Source: a virus
Taxonomy: Duplodnaviria; Heunggongvirae; Uroviricota; Caudoviricetes
Strand: one strand, 5' to 3'
DNA: 16,694 nt
Virus record (IMG/VR): IMGVR_UViG_2617270968_000003
Coordinates: 1 to 16,694 of that record
The position numbers were made by a program, and so were the translations under genes. The notes under the pieces are model-generated. The model ran no database searches, had not been told where the DNA came from, and was given only the letters and a program-made list of their open reading frames with translations. Of this stretch, positions 1,623 through 16,694 are shown in pieces; position 1 is the first letter of the stretch; each line of letters begins with the position of its first letter.

Positions 1623-1746
1623 ATGTCTGCACCTGCACTGCCTGATGTCAGAACAGTATTTTGATGAATTGCCAAGGTTACAATGGCACAAATACGGCAC
1701 AGGAGGAAACGTGGTGTATTTAAATATGGGGTAACTCTTTGATTTT

Positions 1747-3276
1747 AATGGTGCCGATAATAGGAGTCGAACCTACGACCTTCGCATTACGAATTATAAG
1801 AATCCACTTCTAATTCAAAGCATTACCCCATCAACACTGCGCTCACACGTCCCACCACATCAAAACATGTAAAGCCTTGCAAGCCATTGTGAGGCCTTAT
1901 GTGTCTCAGTTTTGTCCCACCTTGTATTACGACTTGCATAGCCAATGAAGATCAACGTGACGACAAACGGCGCAGCAGTCTTCTTTTCCTTCATACTTTC
2001 CCCAATCAGCATACATACTTTCTACCATAACTGTAGTGAATGTCTGTTATGAGCGAGCAAAAGAGATTCAATTACCGGGGAATTACTCCGACATAAGCTC
2101 TCCCAGAAACACCGGAACAGCGATTCGCATATTCTCTTCTATACTTTCAGTCTGACCGGCTGGAGATTTCATAGCAAGAAAATGGATGCGCCAAGACCTA
2201 TGCGGGAAAGAGGCTGAGGAAATAATTGCCGATAGCACTGTGCCCGCCGAAAAGTTATCTGGCACGCAATGACGCGCGTCCTTGGGGCATCAGGAATCAG
2301 AGAGCCAACTTAACAACCCATTATATATTATTTAACCGGACCGTTACATGTACAAAGTTCAATGATTAGTGATTCTGTGACGCCACATACAACCTAAGCC
2401 CCTGATATAAAACCAGTCTATGCAACACCTAAAAATCATATATGATAGGGTGATAAGTCAACGCGCAGTATAAAAATCAAGCTAAAAAATGCTTTCAGCA
2501 TAGTGAATCTATTTCACACTACATAATTAAGGATGAAAAAATGACTGCACCAGTAATTAGTTTTATCAATATGAAAGGTGGGGTTGGTAAAACAACTTTA
2601 TGCGTTGGGATTGCTGAGTTTTTAGCCAACCATATGGGGCGCAAGGTTCTAGTTATCGATATTGATCCTCAATTTAATGCCACTCAGTCCTTAATGGGGC
2701 ATTATGATCGAGTAGAAGAATATATGACTGCCCTTCGCCCTAATAATCAAACCATTCGAAAGATTTTTGAGCTTCCAAATTCATTAATGGAAGATGAAAA
2801 GAAAGTGACACCAGAACAGGTCATTACTAAAGTTTCAGACAATCTTGATATTATCTTAGGTGATATAAACATTATCTTTGATACTAACCAAGAGGGTATT
2901 AGAATAAAAATGTTGCGTAAATTCATCACCGAAAATGACTTAAAAGAAAGTTACGACTATATCTTTATCGATAGCCCCCCAACAATCTCATTATTTACAG
3001 ATACCGCACTCCTTGCTTCTGATTATTATCTTACTCCGGTTAAAATTGATCACTACTCGGTGCTTGGAGCAAGCAGTTTAAATAGCGTTATAAGAAATAT
3101 GCGCACACATCATGAGAAAGAAATCAAGCAAGTCGGTTACATTTATACAAACACTGATGCTGAAATGACCAATAAAACAAGGGAAATTAAAGAGCAATTC
3201 GAAAACCATACTCAATTTACAAATTTTTATTTCTTTGAAAATCAATTAACCTACGTGCGTGATTTAATGGTAGGTT
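1747..3276. repeat. Direct repeat copy 1 (about 1530 bp) of the element's left end: att fragment, 745-bp leader, 5' 736 nt of ParA-like gene
   Basis: Matches 15165..16694 at offset 13,418; verified by eye at both ends and at internal points; two 60-aa ORF translations in the track are identical between copies. Confidence 0.85.
1749..1794 (-). other. 46-nt 3' fragment of tRNA-Thr(CGU) (thrW-type) - attachment-site copy (ptwF-like tRNA pseudogene), copy 1
   Basis: Plus strand reads TGGTGCCGATAATAGGAGTCGAACCTACGACCTTCGCATTACGAAT, the reverse complement of a tRNA 3' end (CCA, acceptor stem, T-arm GGTTCGACTCC, anticodon loop with CGT); similarity stops where the 5' half of a tRNA should be, so the gene is partial. 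Confidence 0.8.
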
Positions 3277-5372: not shown

Positions 5373-7262
5373 ATGAAATCCGAGACGCTAACTGTCCAAC
5401 AACTTTTTCAAGACCGCCGACAATACTGTGTTCCATTCTATCAACGTGCCTATGTATGGACTCAGCGAAACCAATGGTCAGCTCTACTGGAGGATATCCT
5501 AGAGAAAGCACAATCCCGGCTCTCGGGTACAAAACCAACTCCCCATTTCCTTGGTGCAGTTGTACTGGAACCTCAACCAAAAAAAGGATTATTCGGTGTA
5601 GATTCCATACATATTATTGATGGTCAGCAACGATTGACCACTCTTCAATATGTTCTGGCATCCATCCGATTAGCATTACGTGCAACAGATCTTTCCAACT
5701 TAGAGCCTCTCATTTCGTCTTGCCTGAAAAACTCAAACGAAGACACAATGCGAAATAAAGAAGTAGAGCGCTTCAAACTGTGGCCAACTTTTCGGGATCA
5801 AACTCATTTTATTCAAAGTTTTAATGTTGAAAATATTGACGATATCCGGAATGTATTCTCTGATAGTTTCACGCAGCATGGTACGTTGCGTAAGCATTTT
5901 AATCACCCGCCATCACTAGAAGCATTATGTTTTTTTACTGAAGCCTTTATAAAGTGGATTAAAATAGAAAATCACTCACCACGAGAAAATGCTGTAGCAT
6001 TAATTGAGGCTGTCTTGACGGATCTGAAACTAGTAAGCATATTTCTCGAGGCTGAAGATGACGCTCAAATAATTTTTGAAACATTAAATGGCAGAGGTGC
6101 GGAACTTCATGCCACAGATCTTATTCGCAATTATATTTTTATGTGCGCTGAACATGAAAATATTAATGCTGTTGAATTATATGAGAATGAGTGGAAGATC
6201 TTTGAAGATACGTACTGGTCAGAAAGACAACGTCGTGGTCGTATTAATAAACCACGCATGGAGTGGCTAGTGCATGCAACATTGCAATCAGAAAGGCAAC
6301 GTGAAATCGATCTGTCTCGTCTTTACAATGAGTATCGTGATTATGTAAGTAAGGACTTGCCTTCACAACGAGCAGATCTGCAAGTAAAGCGCCTCAAACA
6401 ATATGCATCACAATATAAAGAATTGGTTGGTGGTTTTGGCACAACCCCCATCTCACACTTTGGACATCGCATCGCAGCCTATGATGTGACGACACTTTAT
6501 CCGCTTGCTTTGTTCATTTCGATAGCTAACATCGCCGATGATGAGAAAGCAGCCATGTATAATGATCTTGTCTCCTACGTAGTACGAAGAGCCGTATGTG
6601 GCCTGACGCCAAAGAATTACAACAATGTATTTATGAATGTATTGCGGCACTTGTCTAAAACAGAAATTTCCAGTGTTGAGTTACGTAATATCCTCAATAG
6701 CTTAAATGGCGAAGCCTCACGTTGGCCTGGGGACTCAGAATTTCTCAACGCTTGCATCAATGCTCCACTTTATCCTGGCAGGCTCGACGCACCGAAAATG
6801 CGCTCAATGTTAACGGAACTTGAAAGAGAACTTTGTCGCCAAGTGAAGACAGAGAAGCCTGATGTTCCAAATCTTTCTAACCTCGATATCGATCATCTTA
6901 TGCCTCAAAGTTGGTATTCCTGTTGGCCTCTCGAAAATGGTCATATGGTGACAAATTCAGATGCTACGGTATTGAACCAAATTGTTCTGTCTGGAACCGA
7001 TCTTACCCCAGAACAGCTACTGGTAAGGAAACGGCAACAAGCGATAGCTACGTTGGGAAATCTAACTTTGCTTAACCTTAGCGTAAACCGTTCTGTTCAG
7101 AATGCTGTATTTCTGAAAAAACGTGATGCTCTCATCGTCCACACCAATCTACGACTGAACATTCCACTTATAGTTAAGGATAAATGGGATGAGGATGAAA
7201 TCCTGGAGCGGGGTAAAATGTTGGGGGAAATTGCATTGAAAGTATGGCCAAAACACGATTAA
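5373..7262 (+). CDS. GmrSD-family type IV (modification-dependent) restriction endonuclease: N-terminal DUF262 (ParB-like NTPase) + C-terminal DUF1524 (His-Me finger nuclease)
   Basis: DUF262 signatures VPFYQRAYVW and IIDGQQRLTT; C-terminal DIDHLMPQSW ... LGNLTLLNLSVNRSVQNAVFLKKR typical of DUF1524; about 630 aa. Start taken at 5373 (MKSETLT, weak AGG SD); in-frame ATG at 5313 is possible. Confidence 0.8.
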   Translation: MKSETLTVQQLFQDRRQYCVPFYQRAYVWTQRNQWSALLEDILEKAQSRLSGTKPTPHFLGAVVLEPQPKKGLFGVDSIHIIDGQQRLTTLQYVLASIRLALRATDLSNLEPLISSCLKNSNEDTMRNKEVERFKLWPTFRDQTHFIQSFNVENIDDIRNVFSDSFTQHGTLRKHFNHPPSLEALCFFTEAFIKWIKIENHSPRENAVALIEAVLTDLKLVSIFLEAEDDAQIIFETLNGRGAELHATDLIRNYIFMCAEHENINAVELYENEWKIFEDTYWSERQRRGRINKPRMEWLVHATLQSERQREIDLSRLYNEYRDYVSKDLPSQRADLQVKRLKQYASQYKELVGGFGTTPISHFGHRIAAYDVTTLYPLALFISIANIADDEKAAMYNDLVSYVVRRAVCGLTPKNYNNVFMNVLRHLSKTEISSVELRNILNSLNGEASRWPGDSEFLNACINAPLYPGRLDAPKMRSMLTELERELCRQVKTEKPDVPNLSNLDIDHLMPQSWYSCWPLENGHMVTNSDATVLNQIVLSGTDLTPEQLLVRKRQQAIATLGNLTLLNLSVNRSVQNAVFLKKRDALIVHTNLRLNIPLIVKDKWDEDEILERGKMLGEIALKVWPKHD

Positions 7263-8322: not shown

Positions 8323-9264
8323 TCACCCCCTGAATCCTGCCGGGATCTGGCTGTAGTCCACGTTGTCGTAACTGGCTTTGAAGTACGGGTCTTCACGTTT
8401 TTCTGTGTGCGTGCTGACGGACGGCGATAAGCGCAGGGAAAGCTCATCCCATTTTTCCCGCAACTTCGACGGGCTGAGCACGTTACGGCACCAGAACGGA
8501 TCGCGGCTGACGCGGCTGTACATCTCGCAGATTTGTTTGTGAGTACGACCATCCTGCACACACATCAGGCGAATTTCGTTTGCCCAGGCTGTCCAGTTAG
8601 GTTCTTTGGGACGAACCACCTCGCCGTCACATTCGGCGGCCTGCTCGTACAGGGCGATGATTTTTTTCCAGAGCCACTGTGCGCAGGTCAAATCATCCTG
8701 CGTTCCCCACTGGCGCTTTTTAGAGCTGAATACAACCGCATCAGGATGACGAGTTAAAAAATCCTGTTCATCCTTCTTCATGTCCGGTTGCGAAGCGTCC
8801 GGACGAGAAGTTTTTTTATCTGACGGATCATGTTTTGATTTTACTGACGGATCCCCGCCAGATTCTGACGGGTGAAAACCCGCTTTTTTGCCAGATTTCG
8901 ACGCATCAAATTTTGACGGGTCAGATTTTGATGCGTCAGATTTTGACGGGTCAGAATCTGACAGTTGAGAAAATGCCGCTGCCTGAAGCTTCGCAACGTT
9001 AAGCTGATAAACATTCGACGCATTGCGGTTACCCTGGCGACGCGCCTTACGCGTTAACCAGCCTTCTGCTTCCAGCCGTGCGATAGCCGTTCTGACGGTA
9101 CTCATCCCCGCGCCAATCTGGCGGGCAATGGTTTCAATTGATGGCCAGCACACACCTTCGTCATTACTGAAATCAGCCAGGCGGGCCATAATTGCCACGC
9201 TGGATAACTTCATGCCTGACGCAGCGCAACCATCCCATACATAGCCGGTTAATTTAGTGCTCAT
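8323..9264 (-). CDS. Phage replication initiation protein (lambda O-like: N-terminal winged HTH, pentapeptide-repeat linker, C-terminal domain), 313 aa
   Basis: N-terminus LSSVAIMARLADFSNDEGVCWPSIETIARQIGAGMSTVRTAIARLEAEGWLTRKARRQGNRNASNVYQLN resembles replication-initiator wHTH domains; GAGG SD before ATG at 9264; position after cro/CII genes on the same strand. Confidence 0.65.
   Translation of the reverse strand: MSTKLTGYVWDGCAASGMKLSSVAIMARLADFSNDEGVCWPSIETIARQIGAGMSTVRTAIARLEAEGWLTRKARRQGNRNASNVYQLNVAKLQAAAFSQLSDSDPSKSDASKSDPSKFDASKSGKKAGFHPSESGGDPSVKSKHDPSDKKTSRPDASQPDMKKDEQDFLTRHPDAVVFSSKKRQWGTQDDLTCAQWLWKKIIALYEQAAECDGEVVRPKEPNWTAWANEIRLMCVQDGRTHKQICEMYSRVSRDPFWCRNVLSPSKLREKWDELSLRLSPSVSTHTEKREDPYFKASYDNVDYSQIPAGFRG
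8861..8964. repeat. Imperfect tandem 15-bp repeats (GATTTTGACGGGTCA-like, about 6 units) inside the replication-initiator gene, encoding DPSKS/DASKS pentapeptide repeats
   Basis: Units at 8861, 8894, 8909, 8924, 8939 and a partial one at 8954; protein shows SDSDPSKSDASKSDPSKFDASKSGKK. Confidence 0.8.
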
Positions 9265-9273
9265 GACCGACCT

Positions 9274-9612
9274 CTATTTCCCTGAATTTACGACGAAACT
9301 GTTCGAGCGGGCTGAAGCACTCATGCTCATAGCCTTCGCGGAGGTAGATAACCCGTTGTGTTTCCGGCTCCCAACGAATGACTCTGACGGGTACTCCGTA
9401 GTGATCTTTGAACCAGCGGTTAACTTGTCGCAAAGGACTGTCTCCTTCTGCCGGTTGAAATCACCCACAGCCCACTCTGCAAAGCTGTGGGTTACAATTT
9501 CCCTGTCACCTGGTACATTCACTGCATAGCAATATTCCACCTTCGCTTTTCCACCCGGTACAGGAAGCGCAATCAGTTGCGAGCGACGGTAGTGTGTTGT
9601 TAAACTGTTCAT
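9274..9612 (-). CDS. Hypothetical protein, 112 aa, between CII-like and replication genes
   Basis: ATG at 9612 overlaps the CII-like stop as ATGA; GGAGA SD 9 nt upstream; stop 9 nt before the next gene's SD. Contains a 9-bp perfect hairpin at 9463..9492. No recognisable domain. Confidence 0.45.
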
Positions 9613-10178
9613 GCGTTAGTTTCTCCACAACCAGAAGCAATCGACGCCACGACGCCCGGAGCTGCACACTCGCGGGCGTCATTACTTTCTGAAATGCAAA
9701 AAATTTTGTAAACAAGTGCTGCATGCTCCTGCAGCTTCGAAATTGAGAGATACAGCTCGTCGTTAATTGCTGTCTTCTCATGCGGTTCCACTACACCGTC
9801 TTCGATTGCTGAACGAATCTGTTTTGAATAACTGCCGATCTGTTCAATGACTTCCAGCAGACGCTGGTTAATATCGGCGTTGTCCACATCCTCGACGTCA
9901 GGAAGAGACACAAAGACGCCATTTGCAGACTGCGCCACAGCATCAGCAATGAAGTGAGTGCCACCAGCACGCTGTAAAACCATTGCCCATCCCAGCGGGA
10001 AAATCTGATCGCCATCTGCACGAAGGCGGTTGAATAAAGCGTTTTCTGTTACATCGAGCCAGTCAGCCGCTTCAGCGTAACCACCCGGCAACGCCGCGAT
10101 AGTTTTTCTGACAGCTTTCACGTACCACTCAGGCTGTTTTTCTATTTTCCAGTGATGCTTACCCACGATTAGCCTCAT
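9609..10178 (-). CDS. Phage regulatory protein, CII-like (CP76/YdaT-like family), 189 aa
   Basis: Immediately downstream of the cro-like gene on the same strand, as lambda cII is; size and context fit the enterobacterial prophage CII-like family; family assignment is from memory. Confidence 0.5.
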
Positions 10179-10209
10179 CGTTCTGTGGTTAAAAATTGAA
10201 AGTGTTCTG

Positions 10210-10410
10210 CTAATCTTTCGGATAGATATCCGGTCTTAAGTCAGATTTCGTAATTGCACCTGACGTGCATTGCTCAAGTTTTTTAGCCAGCACAAAACTG
10301 GCTTTTTTATAGCCATTGAAAACCAGCCGTAAGTAGCCAGGTGTTGAGCCAACTTTTCCGGCCAACTCGCCCTGCTGTTCTTTGGTTAAAGAGTCCCAAT
10401 ACGATTTCAT
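10210..10410 (-). CDS. Cro/YdaS-like HTH transcriptional regulator, 66 aa
   Basis: ATG at 10410 with GGAGG SD 9 nt upstream; MKSYWDSLTKEQQGELAGKVGSTPGYLRLVFNGYKKASFVLAKKLEQCTSGAITKSDLRPDIY resembles Cro/YdaS-type HTH proteins; divergent from the cI-like gene. The longer 167-aa ORF in the track is an upstream extension without SD. Confidence 0.65.
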   Translation of the reverse strand: MKSYWDSLTKEQQGELAGKVGSTPGYLRLVFNGYKKASFVLAKKLEQCTSGAITKSDLRPDIYPKD

Positions 10411-10500
10411 ACGATATGTACCTCCGGTGTACATATTACATGATTGAAATGAACCTTCAAGATACTTGTACCTTAACGGTACAAGGGTTTTAATTTCGTT
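10411..10500. promoter_or_regulatory. Divergent cI/cro intergenic control region with two palindromic operator-like sites
   Basis: Inverted repeats ATGTACCTCCGGTGTACAT (10416..10434) and CTTGTACC-TTAAC-GGTACAAG (10465..10485), both built on TGTACC/GGTACA half-sites, between divergent repressor and cro-like starts. Confidence 0.6.
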
Positions 10501-11175
10501 ATGAAAACAATCCATGACATCCGGCGGTCTAACGCCAGAAAACTGAGAGATGGTGTTGGCGGGAATTCTTCCTTTGCCACTATGATTGATCGCGAGCCAA
10601 CCCAGACCAGCAGGTTTATGGGAGATGGTGCTACTAAAAATATCGGTGACAGCATGGCACGACACATCGAAAAATGTTTCGACCTGCCTGTCGGATGGCT
10701 CGATCAAGAACACCAGACAACGAACATCACAAAAAAACCTGATGTTTCAATCACTAATAAACAAATCACATTAGTCCCTGTCATATCATGGGTACAGGCC
10801 GGAGCATGGAAAGAAGTTGGATATTCTGAGGTTGATTTGAGCACAGCAGAAACGTATCCCTGCCCTGTACCCTGTGGGGAAATGACTTATATCTTGCGGG
10901 TGATAGGTGATTCAATGATTGATGAGTACCGCCCGGGAGACATGATTTTTGTCGATCCTGAAGTACCTGCCTGCCACGGTGACGACGTTATTGCATTGAT
11001 GCACGATACAGGTGAAACCACCTTCAAAAGGTTGATAGAAGATGGGACACAGCGTTATCTCAAAGCGTTAAACCCAAACTGGCCTGAGCCTTACATTAAG
11101 ATCAACGGTAATTGCTCTATAATTGGAACTGTGATTTTCTCAGGAAAACCAAGAAGATACAAAATCAAAGCCTAA
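10501..11175 (+). CDS. CI-like phage repressor with C-terminal S24 (LexA-like) autopeptidase domain, 224 aa
   Basis: C-terminal VIGDSMIDEYRPGDMIFVDP...GDDVIA (S24 Ser site GDSM, later Lys); divergent from cro-like gene; no SD upstream of the ATG, so possibly leaderless like lambda cI from PRM. Confidence 0.75.
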   Translation: MKTIHDIRRSNARKLRDGVGGNSSFATMIDREPTQTSRFMGDGATKNIGDSMARHIEKCFDLPVGWLDQEHQTTNITKKPDVSITNKQITLVPVISWVQAGAWKEVGYSEVDLSTAETYPCPVPCGEMTYILRVIGDSMIDEYRPGDMIFVDPEVPACHGDDVIALMHDTGETTFKRLIEDGTQRYLKALNPNWPEPYIKINGNCSIIGTVIFSGKPRRYKIKA

Positions 11176-11187
11176 TCAATGTTTATG

Positions 11188-11210
11188 AACCTGCTTCGGC
11201 AGGTTTTTTT
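11188..11210 (+). terminator. Rho-independent terminator after the cI-like gene
   Basis: AACCTGC-TTCG-GCAGGTT hairpin followed by TTTTTTT, 13 nt after the stop. Confidence 0.75.
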
Positions 11211-11214
11211 ATAC

Positions 11215-11243
11215 TTGACAATGTACCCTTGAGATACATAATG
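11215..11243 (+). promoter_or_regulatory. Sigma70-like promoter (TTGACA, 17-nt spacer, ATAATG) overlapped by two direct AATGTACCC repeats
   Basis: TTGACA at 11215..11220 and CATAAT/ATAATG at 11237..11243; the repeats share the TGTACC half-site seen in the cI/cro operators. Confidence 0.5.
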
Positions 11244-11323
11244 TACCCAAGAGAAACAACAAACAGGCAGAACGCCCACGAAGTAGCCGCCTGGGGCATA
11301 TGAAGTCCAGGATGATTCGTTAG

Positions 11324-11351
11324 CAACAAAAAAGCGCCCTACAGGACGCTT
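11324..11351 (-). terminator. Rho-independent terminator on the minus strand (8-bp stem with one G-U, UGUA loop, U-run)
   Basis: Minus strand reads AAGCGUCC-UGUA-GGGCGCUU followed by UUUUUUGUUG; on the plus strand the hairpin lacks a U-run. Confidence 0.55.
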
Positions 11352-11409
11352 AGCTCTTTAACAATCTGGTCCCCATCAACAAGTAACTGATAACTTGAGG
11401 AGGTGTGAA

Positions 11410-11616
11410 ATGCACAAAACAGAACCCAAAATCGTCGCGCCCGGATACACAAATGAGGAAATTTACGAGTGGATGGCAAAGAAGCTGGCAGCTATAAACC
11501 AGCTTCGTGAAGTGCTGTCTTATCGACAGGAAATAATAGACTCCTTAAAAAAACTGGATCAGGAAATCACGGTTTTATCACAGGATGTTACTTTAGATAT
11601 TGTGCAGACAAATTAG
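11410..11616 (+). CDS. Small hypothetical protein, 68 aa
   Basis: ATG at 11410 with GAGGAGGTG SD; coiled-coil-like composition; 3' end overlaps the convergent 144-aa gene by 29 nt. Confidence 0.5.
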   Translation: MHKTEPKIVAPGYTNEEIYEWMAKKLAAINQLREVLSYRQEIIDSLKKLDQEITVLSQDVTLDIVQTN

Positions 11617-12022
11617 GATCCCATTCATTTTCGTCAAAATCATCAAAGTGATGAATTTGTGATCTCCAGTCTCGATAATCTAAAAATTTCTGGGCGGTTA
11701 CGCTTATTTTATCAAGTGTGAGTTCATCCTGAATTGAAAGAAGAAGTTCATCAAATTTCATCTCATTAATCTGTTTTGGCATCCAGTGATGCTTCATCAG
11801 AATAAGGTGAACCAGAGCCTTTTTCCCATTCAACTGATTATAGGGAGTGCCGAATTTCTTCCGGTGCTCATGTAAGACAAGGTCCAGAAGAGTAAGTAAT
11901 GTTGCCCTTGATTCGACTTTGCTTATTTCGACTGATGACACTACCCCACTGATTTCAATGCCCCGATACTTTCCAACATTTTCACAGTGGGATTTGTACA
12001 GCGTGTAGATATTACCGGACAT
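11588..12022 (-). CDS. Hypothetical protein, 144 aa; orphan accessory gene in the immunity region
   Basis: ATG at 12022 with AAGGAAAAG SD; AT-rich; no recognisable domain; sits where lambdoid phages carry rex/sie-type exclusion genes. Confidence 0.55.
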   Translation of the reverse strand: MSGNIYTLYKSHCENVGKYRGIEISGVVSSVEISKVESRATLLTLLDLVLHEHRKKFGTPYNQLNGKKALVHLILMKHHWMPKQINEMKFDELLLSIQDELTLDKISVTAQKFLDYRDWRSQIHHFDDFDENEWDPNLSAQYLK

Positions 12023-12099
12023 TTCTTTTCCTTTTGCGTTGTTGGGGATAACCAGATTAACCGAATCCTTGTTGTTGGGGAATAACCAGGTCCACCTCG

Positions 12100-12500
12100 C
12101 CTGATGTGGCTAAAAGCAGGCACATAACAGCTAAGTATTTTCAACCAGAGAGAATCCTTAGCGTTGTGGTGAATGCGGCTCAGCGCACGCGGGTTAAGGT
12201 TGAGGCTGACAGTCGACCTTCTGTGGATACCTACCCGCCTGGTGTGCAACCTTCGCCAGGCACCGGGAGGCACCCGGCACCACAACTTTATGCTGTGTGT
12301 AGTCCTGGCGGTACCAGTTTGTACCCTTGCTTCCGGCTGGTACCGTCCTTTTTACAAAACAGAGAAGAGCATCACCGGACGACGGGCTCATAACCCAATC
12401 CATCCGGGCGGCTGCCACCGCAGGTGTTCTTCTCTGTTTTGTGGAGAAACTAACCGCCCCTGCGGGGGCATCTATTGAAACGTAATTGACTCAATAATCG
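12100..12500. other. GC-rich, hairpin-dense non-coding block upstream of the early operon; candidate structured RNA and/or operator region
   Basis: ORFs open in several frames on both strands (typical of GC-rich non-coding DNA); 15-bp perfect inverted repeat 12354..12368 / 12428..12442; 9-bp hairpin 12309..12317 / 12337..12345; further GC hairpins at about 12237..12262, 12263..12280 and 12456..12470. Confidence 0.4.
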
Positions 12501-12567
12501 CCGGATGGTGAGGGCTTCCTTTTCCCAAAATTCAGCGCGGTGCAGCGCATATAAAGTGGAGAACGAA

Positions 12568-13104
12568 ATGTCATTTATTAAAACTTTTTCCGGGAAGCAT
12601 TTTTATTATGACAAGATAAATAAAGACGACATCGTTATTAACGATATCGCGGTTTCCCTTTCAAATATCTGCCGCTTTGCCGGTCATCTTTCTCACTTCT
12701 ACAGCGTCGCCCAACATGCGGTGCTTTGCAGCCAGCTGGTGCCGCAGGAATTTGCTTTTGAAGCTTTAATGCATGATGCAACAGAAGCATATTGCCAGGA
12801 CATCCCCGCACCACTGAAACGACTTCTTCCTGACTATAAACGGATGGAAGAAAAAATAGACGCCGTAATCCGTGAGAAATACGGGTTACCTCCTGTTATG
12901 AGCACGCCAGTGAAATATGCCGATCTCATTATGCTGGCAACCGAACGCCGCGATCTCGGGCTTGATGATGGCTCTTTCTGGCCTGTGCTGGAAGGTATCC
13001 CGGCAACAGAGATGTTCAACGTGATTCCACTGGCTCCAGGCCATGCCTACGGGATGTTTATGGAACGCTTTAACGAATTATCGGAGTTACGCAAATGCGC
13101 ATGA
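12568..13104 (+). CDS. HD-domain metal-dependent phosphohydrolase (YfbR/YfdR-like 5'-deoxynucleotidase family), 178 aa
   Basis: H...HD...D pattern (SVAQHAV, LMHDATEAY, QDIP); ATG at 12568 with GGAG SD; the track's 12505 start has no SD. Confidence 0.65.
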   Translation: MSFIKTFSGKHFYYDKINKDDIVINDIAVSLSNICRFAGHLSHFYSVAQHAVLCSQLVPQEFAFEALMHDATEAYCQDIPAPLKRLLPDYKRMEEKIDAVIREKYGLPPVMSTPVKYADLIMLATERRDLGLDDGSFWPVLEGIPATEMFNVIPLAPGHAYGMFMERFNELSELRKCA

Positions 13105-14112: not shown

Positions 14113-15152
14113 AGGCTGAAGCATGGCGGGTCAGCAAACTTGGTGAAATACCTGATATAACGTTCGAGGAAGCGTGTGTCAGGTGGCTTGAAGAGAAAGC
14201 ACATAAAAAATCACTGGACGATGACAAAAGCCGGATCGGATTCTGGCTTCAACATTTCGCAGGAATGCAACTAAGAGACATTACTGAATCAAAAATTTAT
14301 TCAGCAATGCAGAAAATGACGAACCGGCGTCATGAGGAAAACTGGAGACTCAGGGCAGAAGCATGCAGAAAAAAAGGGAAACCTGTTCCAGAATACACGC
14401 CAAAACCAGCGTCCGTTGCAACGAAGGCTACGCATCTTTCATTTATAAAGGCCCTACTAAGAGCCGCAGAGCGTGAATGGAAAATGCTGGATAAGGCACC
14501 AATTATTAAAGTGCCTCAACCAAAGAATAAACGGATCCGCTGGCTGGAGCCCCATGAAGCACAAAGGCTGATTGATGAATGTCCGGAGCCATTAAAGTCT
14601 GTTGTTGAATTTGCACTGGCAACAGGTTTAAGACGCTCGAACATCATCAACCTTGAATGGCAACAAATAGATATGCAGCGCCGGGTGGCATGGATAAACC
14701 CGGAAGAGAGTAAATCAAACCGCGCAATTGGCGTTGCGCTGAATGATACTGCATGTCGCGTATTGAAAAAACAAATCGGGAATCATCACCGTTGGGTATT
14801 TGTGTACAAGGAAAGCTGTACCAAACCAGACGGAACGAAAGCGCCAACAGTAAGGAAGATGCGGTATGACGCAAACACAGCCTGGAAAGCGGCGCTGAGA
14901 CGGGCTGGTATTGATGATTTCAGATTTCACGACTTGAGACACACCTGGGCAAGTTGGCTGGTTCAAGCCGGAGTCCCGTTGTCAGTGTTACAGGAAATGG
15001 GAGGCTGGGAGTCTATCGAAATGGTTCGTCGATATGCTCACCTTGCACCTAATCACCTTACCGAACACGCACGGCAAATAGACTCGATCCTGAACCCATC
15101 GGTCCCAAATTTGTCCCAGTCAAAAAATAAGGAAGGTACTAATGATGTGTAA
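13989..15152 (+). CDS. int: Tyrosine-type site-specific recombinase (phage integrase), 387 aa
   Basis: N-terminal arm-binding-like [34 protein letters not shown]; C-terminal catalytic [12 protein letters not shown] ... MVRRYAHL (R-H-R-Y); ends 14 nt before the tRNA-fragment att copy. Confidence 0.85.
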
Positions 15153-15166
15153 CTTATTGATTTAAA

Positions 15167-15212
15167 TGGTGCCGATAATAGGAGTCGAACCTACGACCTT
15201 CGCATTACGAAT
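15167..15212 (-). other. 46-nt 3' fragment of tRNA-Thr(CGU), attachment-site copy 2, directly after int
   Basis: Identical to the fragment at 1749..1794; again followed by element-left-end sequence instead of the tRNA 5' half. Confidence 0.8.
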
Positions 15213-15958
15213 TATAAGAATCCACTTCTAATTCAAAGCATTACCCCATCAACACTGCGCTCACACGTCCCACCACATCAAAACATGTAAAGCCTTGCAA
15301 GCCATTGTGAGGCCTTATGTGTCTCAGTTTTGTCCCACCTTGTATTACGACTTGCATAGCCAATGAAGATCAACGTGACGACAAACGGCGCAGCAGTCTT
15401 CTTTTCCTTCATACTTTCCCCAATCAGCATACATACTTTCTACCATAACTGTAGTGAATGTCTGTTATGAGCGAGCAAAAGAGATTCAATTACCGGGGAA
15501 TTACTCCGACATAAGCTCTCCCAGAAACACCGGAACAGCGATTCGCATATTCTCTTCTATACTTTCAGTCTGACCGGCTGGAGATTTCATAGCAAGAAAA
15601 TGGATGCGCCAAGACCTATGCGGGAAAGAGGCTGAGGAAATAATTGCCGATAGCACTGTGCCCGCCGAAAAGTTATCTGGCACGCAATGACGCGCGTCCT
15701 TGGGGCATCAGGAATCAGAGAGCCAACTTAACAACCCATTATATATTATTTAACCGGACCGTTACATGTACAAAGTTCAATGATTAGTGATTCTGTGACG
15801 CCACATACAACCTAAGCCCCTGATATAAAACCAGTCTATGCAACACCTAAAAATCATATATGATAGGGTGATAAGTCAACGCGCAGTATAAAAATCAAGC
15901 TAAAAAATGCTTTCAGCATAGTGAATCTATTTCACACTACATAATTAAGGATGAAAAA

Positions 15959-16694
15959 ATGACTGCACCAGTAATTAGTTTTATCAATATGAAAGGTGGG
16001 GTTGGTAAAACAACTTTATGCGTTGGGATTGCTGAGTTTTTAGCCAACCATATGGGGCGCAAGGTTCTAGTTATCGATATTGATCCTCAATTTAATGCCA
16101 CTCAGTCCTTAATGGGGCATTATGATCGAGTAGAAGAATATATGACTGCCCTTCGCCCTAATAATCAAACCATTCGAAAGATTTTTGAGCTTCCAAATTC
16201 ATTAATGGAAGATGAAAAGAAAGTGACACCAGAACAGGTCATTACTAAAGTTTCAGACAATCTTGATATTATCTTAGGTGATATAAACATTATCTTTGAT
16301 ACTAACCAAGAGGGTATTAGAATAAAAATGTTGCGTAAATTCATCACCGAAAATGACTTAAAAGAAAGTTACGACTATATCTTTATCGATAGCCCCCCAA
16401 CAATCTCATTATTTACAGATACCGCACTCCTTGCTTCTGATTATTATCTTACTCCGGTTAAAATTGATCACTACTCGGTGCTTGGAGCAAGCAGTTTAAA
16501 TAGCGTTATAAGAAATATGCGCACACATCATGAGAAAGAAATCAAGCAAGTCGGTTACATTTATACAAACACTGATGCTGAAATGACCAATAAAACAAGG
16601 GAAATTAAAGAGCAATTCGAAAACCATACTCAATTTACAAATTTTTATTTCTTTGAAAATCAATTAACCTACGTGCGTGATTTAATGGTAGGTT
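15959..16694 (+). CDS. ParA/MinD-like ATPase, second copy, 3' end beyond window
   Basis: Identical to 2541..3276 of copy 1 by the repeat offset; same Walker A motif. Confidence 0.8.
   Translation, partial: MTAPVISFINMKGGVGKTTLCVGIAEFLANHMGRKVLVIDIDPQFNATQSLMGHYDRVEEYMTALRPNNQTIRKIFELPNSLMEDEKKVTPEQVITKVSDNLDIILGDINIIFDTNQEGIRIKMLRKFITENDLKESYDYIFIDSPPTISLFTDTALLASDYYLTPVKIDHYSVLGASSLNSVIRNMRTHHEKEIKQVGYIYTNTDAEMTNKTREIKEQFENHTQFTNFYFFENQLTYVRDLMVG

Follow-up and report, generated by a model that had tools for sequence, protein, structure and literature searches.

The DNA analysed here, referred to below as the window, is a 16,694-nucleotide (nt) stretch of a Caudoviricetes record (IMGVR_UViG_2617270968_000003), and the subject of this study was its cI repressor gene together with the regulatory DNA on both sides of it. 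The region very probably constitutes the lysis–lysogeny switch (cI/Cro immunity module) of an e14/SfV-type lambdoid prophage remnant, with operators (OR) between cro and cI and a second set (OL) over an early-left promoter (PL) downstream of cI. The PL transcript opens with a conserved RNA of about 62 nt, which almost certainly represents a genuine structured RNA family. Taken as one, this explanation, comprising the switch, OL/PL and the leader RNA, is likely to be correct. The switch is an ordinary lambda-type immunity switch, essentially the known e14/SfV module, and the operator map is a modest addition to it; as a known kind of system throughout, it is of low novelty and by itself adds little. 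The leader RNA is the part of more consequence.

Predicted operators and promoters around the cI gene

The features of the switch are as follows.

10210–10410, minus strand: cro-like gene, ymfT homologue, encoding a 66-residue helix-turn-helix (HTH) protein (RefSeq annotation of an identical locus)
10501–11175, plus strand: cI repressor gene of the YmfK/CohE type, 224 residues, N-terminal HTH and C-terminal S24 autopeptidase domain
10416–10434, no strand: putative operator OR-a, ATGTACCTCCGGTGTACAT, exact match to TGTAC-N7-GTACA, 6-nt arms, 7-nt centre, right arm TGTACA
10449–10467, no strand: putative weak operator OR-c, ATGAACCTTCAAGATACTT, ATGAACC-N5-GATACT here and ATGAACC-N5-GGTACT in relatives, presumed to be bound
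10466–10484, no strand: putative operator OR-b, TTGTACCTTAACGGTACAA, exact match, GGTACA invariant, 5-nt centre variable
10433–10460, minus strand: predicted cro promoter (PR), -35 TTGAAG (10460–10455), 16-nt spacer, -10 TAATAT (10438–10433), start near 10426–10428
10489–10501, plus strand: -10-like TTTAAT (10489–10494) of the cI promoter (PRM) and predicted leaderless start at A10501, after the start site of e14 ymfK, whose upstream sequence is identical
11187–11210, plus strand: cI intrinsic terminator (terminator scan, 11187–11206; annotated in the SfV record too)
11215–11242, plus strand: PL-analogue promoter, TTGACA-16-CATAAT, start near 11249
11221–11239, no strand: putative operator OL1, ATGTACCCTTGAGATACAT, one mismatch, in the PL spacer and -10
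11241–11259, no strand: putative operator OL2, ATGTACCCAAGAGAAACAA, over the start site, degenerate right half GAAACA

The search of the window for TGTAC-N7-GTACA with at most one mismatch revealed three sites (10417, 10467 and 11222) against 0.28 expected, and none of 200 shuffled sequences reached three. All of them flank the cI gene and one lies at the downstream promoter. The half-site TGTACC alone occurred 15 times (5.0 expected). To define the motif, 18 distinct OR variants and 19 OL variants from phages and viral contigs of this immunity type were compared, which gave the consensus ATGTACC-N5-GRTACAT. Throughout the 18 OR variants the half-sites were invariant, including those not used as search anchors, and the five central bases varied freely.

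The original prediction had placed two palindromes with TGTACC/GGTACA half-sites at 10416–10434 and 10465–10485 and regarded them as repressor operators. Both palindromes are present, the second one (CTTGTACCTTAACGGTACAAG, the OR-b dyad) being a perfect 21-bp palindrome, but the right arm of the first is TGTACA and not GGTACA. Their role as operators is supported, at the level of sequence comparison, by invariant half-sites, variable centres and the co-occurrence of the motif with a particular recognition helix described below. A third, weaker OR site (10449–10467), the dyad nature of the downstream repeats and the content of the leader of about 160 nt go beyond that prediction.

OR-a covers the -10 end, the start site and the Shine–Dalgarno (SD) sequence (GGAGG) of the cro transcript, and its right half-site, which was not an anchor, is invariant around a variable centre. 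OR-b covers the -35 and spacer of the cI promoter, with its centre at -26. OR-c lies over the PR -35, its centre at -43 relative to the cI start site, and adjoins OR-b in E. coli, Edwardsiella and Pseudomonas. Both PR hexamers are conserved in relatives and the spacer between them is variable.

The near-consensus sigma70 promoter proposed downstream of the cI terminator was recovered by the promoter scan at 11215–11242 as an 11/12 match. It is annotated as a promoter in phage Ayreon, and its location corresponds to that of the promoters in other immunity types. The two direct repeats reported over it were also found, AATGTACCC occurring exactly twice (11220 and 11240, 20 bp apart), and could be refined further: each repeat is predicted to form the left half of a dyad operator, OL1 or OL2, over this lambda-PL-like promoter. 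In several variants OL1 is a perfect ATGTACC-N5-GGTACAT dyad with a fully variable centre, and among the 19 OL variants the OL2 left half and GAAACA are nearly invariant around a variable centre. The assumption that OL2, with its two mismatches, was a mere chance match was overturned by these variants and by Edwardsiella phage EPP-1. Repressor control of the downstream promoter, as originally suggested, is thus supported by sequence because the promoter is a lambda-PL analogue carrying two dyads 20 bp apart.

Further evidence was provided by distant relatives. In EPP-1 and the Pseudomonas phages BR133a and LESphi3, the repressor N-terminal domains are 55–64% identical and have the helix REPTQxSR in common. 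These phages carry the same dyads with the same 50–51 bp spacing in DNA that is otherwise unrelated, and in EPP-1 and the Pseudomonas relatives one dyad again covers the SD of the gene read leftward. After a terminator, EPP-1 has in addition a TTGACA promoter overlapped by two good dyads with a 20-bp spacing, the OL2 equivalent being TGTACTTATAAGATACA. The motif was absent from RSK1 and BP-4795, relatives with a different recognition helix.

The overlap of every site with another signal raises the question of whether the GTAC-core dyads are cI operators at all, since Cro or a host factor might be their sole ligand, or they might be kept only as promoter or SD sequence: OR-a includes the cro SD, OR-c the PR -35, OR-b the PRM -35, and OL1 contains part of the PL -10. 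The same dyad occurs, though, at OL, where no SD is involved, the half-sites are invariant beyond the promoter hexamers while the centres vary, and the motif tracks the recognition helix across Escherichia, Edwardsiella and Pseudomonas despite unrelated flanking DNA. This alternative is therefore regarded as very improbable.

Several observations speak against the operator map in its details. PR matches the consensus in only 8 of 12 positions, which is why it was not reported by the promoter scan, and the conservation of OR-c may reflect only its PR -35 content. K-12 lysogens have an active cI promoter, and it is the -35 of this promoter that the best dyad, OR-b, overlaps. In OL2 the right half is degenerate, and the Ayreon sequence shows a mismatch to the left half as well.

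Two other palindrome sets were noticed in related positions. In two Pseudomonas phages, the OL position 3' of the repressor gene (about 2320–2390) contains two CTGTATATACAG-type palindromes instead, which are LexA-box-like. The PL operator region of HK022 (about 5630–5690, minus strand), a phage with a different repressor, also has GTAC-core repeats, ATGTACTATTGGTACTTTACAT and TAAGTACAT.

The cI gene has neither an in-frame start upstream of 10501 nor an SD at a usable distance, in line with the original claim that it lacks an SD and is possibly leaderless. In e14, the transcription of ymfK starts with the A of the ATG, which corresponds to a leader of length 0 (Romero et al., differential RNA-seq; PMC4681348 Table S3), and ymfK is one of only five leaderless mRNAs found in K-12 in the same study. 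Because of this mapped start and the identical upstream sequence in the window, the cI mRNA is predicted to be leaderless here as well, of the lambda PRM type. An NNTAAT motif located 6–7 nt 5' of the ATG is kept in all relatives, and the bases between the two vary.

The repressor and its neighbours are of the kinds found in lambda-type switches. The cI protein matched Peptidase_S24 (E = 1.5e-26), with the C-terminal domain aligning to lambda cI, LexA and UmuD, and reading the translation by eye showed a QAG cleavage motif, the Ser of GDSM and the Lys of FKRL; the N-terminal domain shows a weak resemblance to the Rep repressor of SPC32H (alignment to PDB 5d50). The cro-like protein belongs to PHROG 35 (transcriptional repressor), its HTH_3/YdaS matches being under the Pfam cut-off. 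The features expected of a lambda-type switch were thus found together: a divergent repressor/cro arrangement with a short common control region, an HTH plus S24 self-cleaving repressor with an Ala-Gly site and a Ser/Lys dyad, several putative dyad operators over both divergent promoters, and a second putative set over an early promoter 3' of cI.

Structured leader RNA of the PL transcript

The features downstream of PL are listed below.

11259–11320, plus strand: conserved structured leader RNA, about 62 nt, with P1 (11259–65/11313–20), a hairpin (11266–76) and P2 (11290–94/11307–11)
11332–11351, no strand: hairpin acting as intrinsic terminator for the minus-strand gene; in the PL transcript it forms a boxB-like stem containing a C.A mismatch
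11353–11364, plus strand: rrn-type boxA, GCTCTTTAACAA, the exact 12-mer of the K-12 rrnB leader, in the same hairpin-then-boxA order
11410–11616, plus strand: first PL gene, 68 residues, with a strong SD (GAGGAGG); called by PGAP in an identical locus
11588–12022, minus strand: convergent ECs1072-family gene (moron; NCBIfam NF033230, E = 1.7e-46)

The alignment of 47 distinct copies of the leader revealed a three-way junction closed by helix P1, the other two arms being a small hairpin that does not vary and the hairpin P2. RNAalifold detected compensatory double changes in 9 of 15 pairs, with 98.2% of cells paired. The covariation score was 0.371, in comparison with 0.094 in shuffled alignments and at most 0.075 with slid partners. 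The covariance model found a single copy in the window (88.7 bits, 11254–11327).

The number of carriers is at least 120 among viral contigs and 49 among phage records, with the element always just 3' of a cI-type gene and promoter, in varied immunity types. The sequence 11255–11321 is conserved in phages of quite different repressors and operators; among the carriers are SfII, ST64B, mEp237, SPN3UB, ZF40, YeP1-3, AH07, phiNP and Klebsiella phages, and it is also present in e14 of E. coli K-12 and in SfIV and SfV. In 51 of the 67 contexts where a good promoter was found, the -10 hexamer ended 28–31 nt before the search anchor, so the RNA starts less than 10 nt from the transcription start. A 14-mer scan of bacterial genome contigs returned mostly chance matches (about 97 of the 100 checked loci), the true ones being only in Leclercia, Kosakonia and Kluyvera. 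As a specificity control, the covariance model rejected the 97 chance matches from unrelated bacteria.

A copy was also found in the Providencia phage PR1, which is T5-like (1490–1565, 65 bits); both P1 and P2 show compensatory changes in this copy. It lies in the terminal repeat (the pre-early region) after a strong promoter and is followed about 10 nt later by a boxA, CGCTCTTTAA. Its presence in T5-like Providencia phages indicates that the module is not confined to temperate phages. Conversely, yong2 and Ayreon have the same immunity region without the RNA, which shows that the two are separate modules.

Searches of Rfam 15 gave no match on 11254–11327 at E <= 10, either in the scan of 9000–13000 or in a lax scan of 11240–11420. 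Ribozymes, the hammerhead among them, and a LexA box were considered and discarded, as the sequence fits none of them and none was found in Rfam.

The distribution of the element among Shigella serotype-converting phages suggests a relation to the antiterminator N. It is present in SfII, SfIV and SfV, which lack N according to the SfIV genome paper, and missing from Sf6 and SfI, two phages with an N gene and nut sites. On the basis of its 5' position, size, independence of the downstream gene, association with N-less phages and neighbouring boxA, a role in antitermination is proposed. The leader might represent a second, structurally unrelated put-like class mediating cis antitermination of the early-left operon in N-less Enterobacterales lambdoid phages, a proposal that is put forward tentatively, as somewhat less likely than not.

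A number of results weigh against this proposal or against parts of it. The blastn comparison of the leader with the HK022 early region gave only chance words, and with the covariance model neither HK022 nor HK639 gave a match at E <= 10. According to this model, the PR operon of the window contains no further copy. The fold of the single leader sequence was no better than that of shuffled sequences (z = 0.37), so it is the covariation by itself that carries the case for the structure. The copy in the window, a decayed prophage, has an A.C mismatch in P1. The absence of the RNA from the immunity regions of yong2 and Ayreon also has to be counted here.

The boxA sequence could point to another function. 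Rather than modifying RNA polymerase independently of protein, the leader could serve as a nut-like docking site for a phage or host protein, or as an element for 5' stabilisation or processing. The distance from the element to the boxA downstream, a binding site of NusB/NusE, is 33 nt here and about 10 nt in PR1, and CACGAAGUAGC, a long single-stranded segment without variation, has the look of a recognition surface; stems at the 5' terminus are also known to stabilise mRNAs. On the other hand, no conserved N-like gene follows the element, the first genes differing among phages, and boxA accompanies it in only 19 of 99 contexts. Such a function is rather doubtful, but not negligible.

The boxA in the window directly follows the hairpin at 11332–11351, whose stem is conserved and whose loop is variable across loci; it is the hairpin/boxA module as a whole that recurs in the 19 contexts. 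This hairpin bears on the original suggestion that the downstream promoter might produce a small RNA. The promoter could make a stand-alone regulatory RNA of about 100 nt ending at the hairpin, and not an operon leader, as the structure is conserved irrespective of the following gene and the hairpin, then AGCUCUUU, occurs about 100 nt from the start site. Most contexts have no terminator after the element, though, with the sequence diverging right after P1, and the hairpin pairs better on the minus strand (G.U against C.A on the plus strand), where the T-run is also found. Furthermore, a boxA, a strong SD and a genuine PHROG-family open reading frame lie downstream, and in e14 the PL-side genes are induced together, much like an operon. 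The existence of a free-standing small RNA is hence improbable and the suggestion was not supported: the transcript opens with a conserved structured leader.

Two observations concern copies of the RNA in lambda-type surroundings. Some copies were located behind lambda-type operators (TATCACTTCCGGC...), as in the loci L070, L028 and L266 (8095–8151). The lambda-type PL transcript begins with bases (ATCAGCAGGACGC) similar to an internally deleted 5' part of the element, and an exchange at this junction may have left this trace.

Proposed regulation and relation to known systems

The regulatory scheme proposed for the module is based on the positions of the sites and the analogy with lambda, from which both operator occupancy and regulatory signs were inferred. 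An SOS-cleavable cI would bind ATGTACC-N5-GRTACAT dyads at OR and OL. At OR-a it would block the -10 and start of the cro promoter, at the weak OR-c the PR -35, and at OR-b it would limit its own promoter, the perfect OR-b dyad over the cI promoter -35 implying negative autoregulation. Cro presumably acts on the same sites. The transcription of cI would begin at the leaderless start and be halted at the strong terminator, and cI at OL1/OL2 would shut off the early-left promoter. RecA-stimulated self-cleavage of cI upon SOS induction would derepress both operons. The PL transcript would then carry, in order, the three-way-junction RNA, the hairpin, the rrn-type boxA, the 68-residue gene and the xis/int-side genes, and in phages without N the leader may render RNA polymerase resistant to termination.

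In K-12, an iModulon containing sulA and recN includes the PL-side genes ymfJ, ymfH, xisE and intE as well as the PR-side genes ymfT, ymfL, ymfM and ymfN (PMC12132413 Table 1). Such co-expression of genes from both sides is indirect evidence consistent with joint derepression.

The module shares the genes, intergenic region, terminator, PL and OL sequences with e14, SfV and SfIV. In comparison with e14 and SfV, the window represents a separate, decayed copy at thrW, and it differs in the first PL gene: the 68-residue phrog_1744 protein together with the convergent ECs1072 moron in the window, ymfJ in e14 and orf33 in SfV. No definition of the individual operators of e14 or SfV was found in the accessible literature; an earlier description of the operators or the RNA may exist.

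The likeness to lambda includes the divergent cI and cro genes, three OR dyads, the leaderless cI mRNA, the SOS-cleaved S24 repressor and a second operator set over a strong promoter reading in the direction of cI. In contrast to lambda, the HTH and the operator (ATGTACC-N5-GRTACAT) are of another kind, the OR sites are spaced by 33 + 17 bp (lambda, 24 + 23), the best dyad falls on the PRM -35, there are two OL sites, and rex genes and N are both missing. Instead of lambda CII, the window encodes a CII of the phage 186 type (YmfL, Pfam Phage_CP76).

The leader resembles the put elements of HK022 and HK639 in being a structured RNA of about 60–70 nt at the 5' end of the PL transcript of lambdoid phages without N; its location at the 5' end of the early operon is that of the put family. 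Homology to putL or putR in sequence or structure was not found, whereas the annotated putL-like RNA of HK639 is plainly homologous to HK022 putL. The architecture also differs, as put consists of two side-by-side stem-loops with a locally paired 5' end and the leader is a three-way junction closed by P1. Unlike put, the leader is present in a single copy with no putR counterpart, and the shared function is only proposed. Rfam gave no match on HK022 putL either.

The likeness to the rrn antiterminator and nut sites is limited to the exact boxA 12-mer on the transcript, placed right after a hairpin in the order of the rrnB leader. In contrast to rrn and nut, the hairpin has no sequence relationship to theirs and also terminates the gene on the opposite strand, and neither a boxC nor an N protein with a cognate boxB was recognised.

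The operator consensus provides a testable prediction for the YmfK/CohE repressor family (e14, SfV, SfIV, cdtI and several Stx2c phages), and the comparison indicates that this repressor has its specificity in common with those of Edwardsiella and Pseudomonas phages. Antitermination of early operons in N-less lambdoid phages is known only for the put RNAs of the HK022 type, and as late as 2025 a study of lambdoid phages could offer no more than the guess "put-like" for one without N (PMC12315714). With a covarying RNA that is widespread, occupies the exact putL position and is present in the K-12 chromosome too, the question of N-less antitermination becomes directly testable.

Neighbouring genes and setting of the locus

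The whole stretch is a decayed, defective prophage at the thrW tRNA site of E. coli. The annotation of an identical locus in IAL7250 reads paoD, the ParA island, ymfL, ymfT, ymfK, xis, int and tRNA-Thr, with further genes between these blocks. Positions 9200–12100 are 98% identical to Shigella phage SfIV and 95% to SfV, and in the SfV record the cro–cI interval carries the label "putative operator region" and a terminator is marked 3' of cI. The regulatory DNA is near-identical to that of e14 (ymfK/ymfT) of E. coli K-12: the cro–cI gap of 90 bp has two substitutions relative to e14, and 10414–10515 is identical to it.

The 68-residue protein encoded by the first PL gene matched phrog_1744 over its full length (E = 1.8e-33), and the profile searches gave no N-family match for it. 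The gene next to cro, encoding YmfL (9612–10178, minus strand), belongs to Pfam Phage_CP76 (phage 186 CII type) and to a PHROG described as 'CII-like transcriptional activator'; according to the SfIV genome paper, cII is missing from SfIV, SfV and SfII.

The regions 1731–3276 and 15149–16694 form a near-exact direct duplication with three mismatches close to the junction. Each duplicate opens with the 3' part of the tRNA-Thr gene thrW (the att core), the second copy directly after the integrase gene, so that the ParA island and the prophage remnant apparently lie in tandem at thrW. ARAGORN detected no intact tRNA in the window.

At 12133–12355 (plus strand), a full-length match to the Rfam small RNA STnc100 (RF02076; 43.1 bits, E = 3e-7) was detected, which just missed the gathering score of 47 and sits within a hypothetical gene annotated by PGAP as frameshifted. 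The region 8815–8966 contains four to five copies of 15-bp direct repeats (CAGATTTTGACGGGT-like) with inverted copies close by. These repeats fall inside the O-like replication gene (8323–9264, minus strand) and look like origin iterons.

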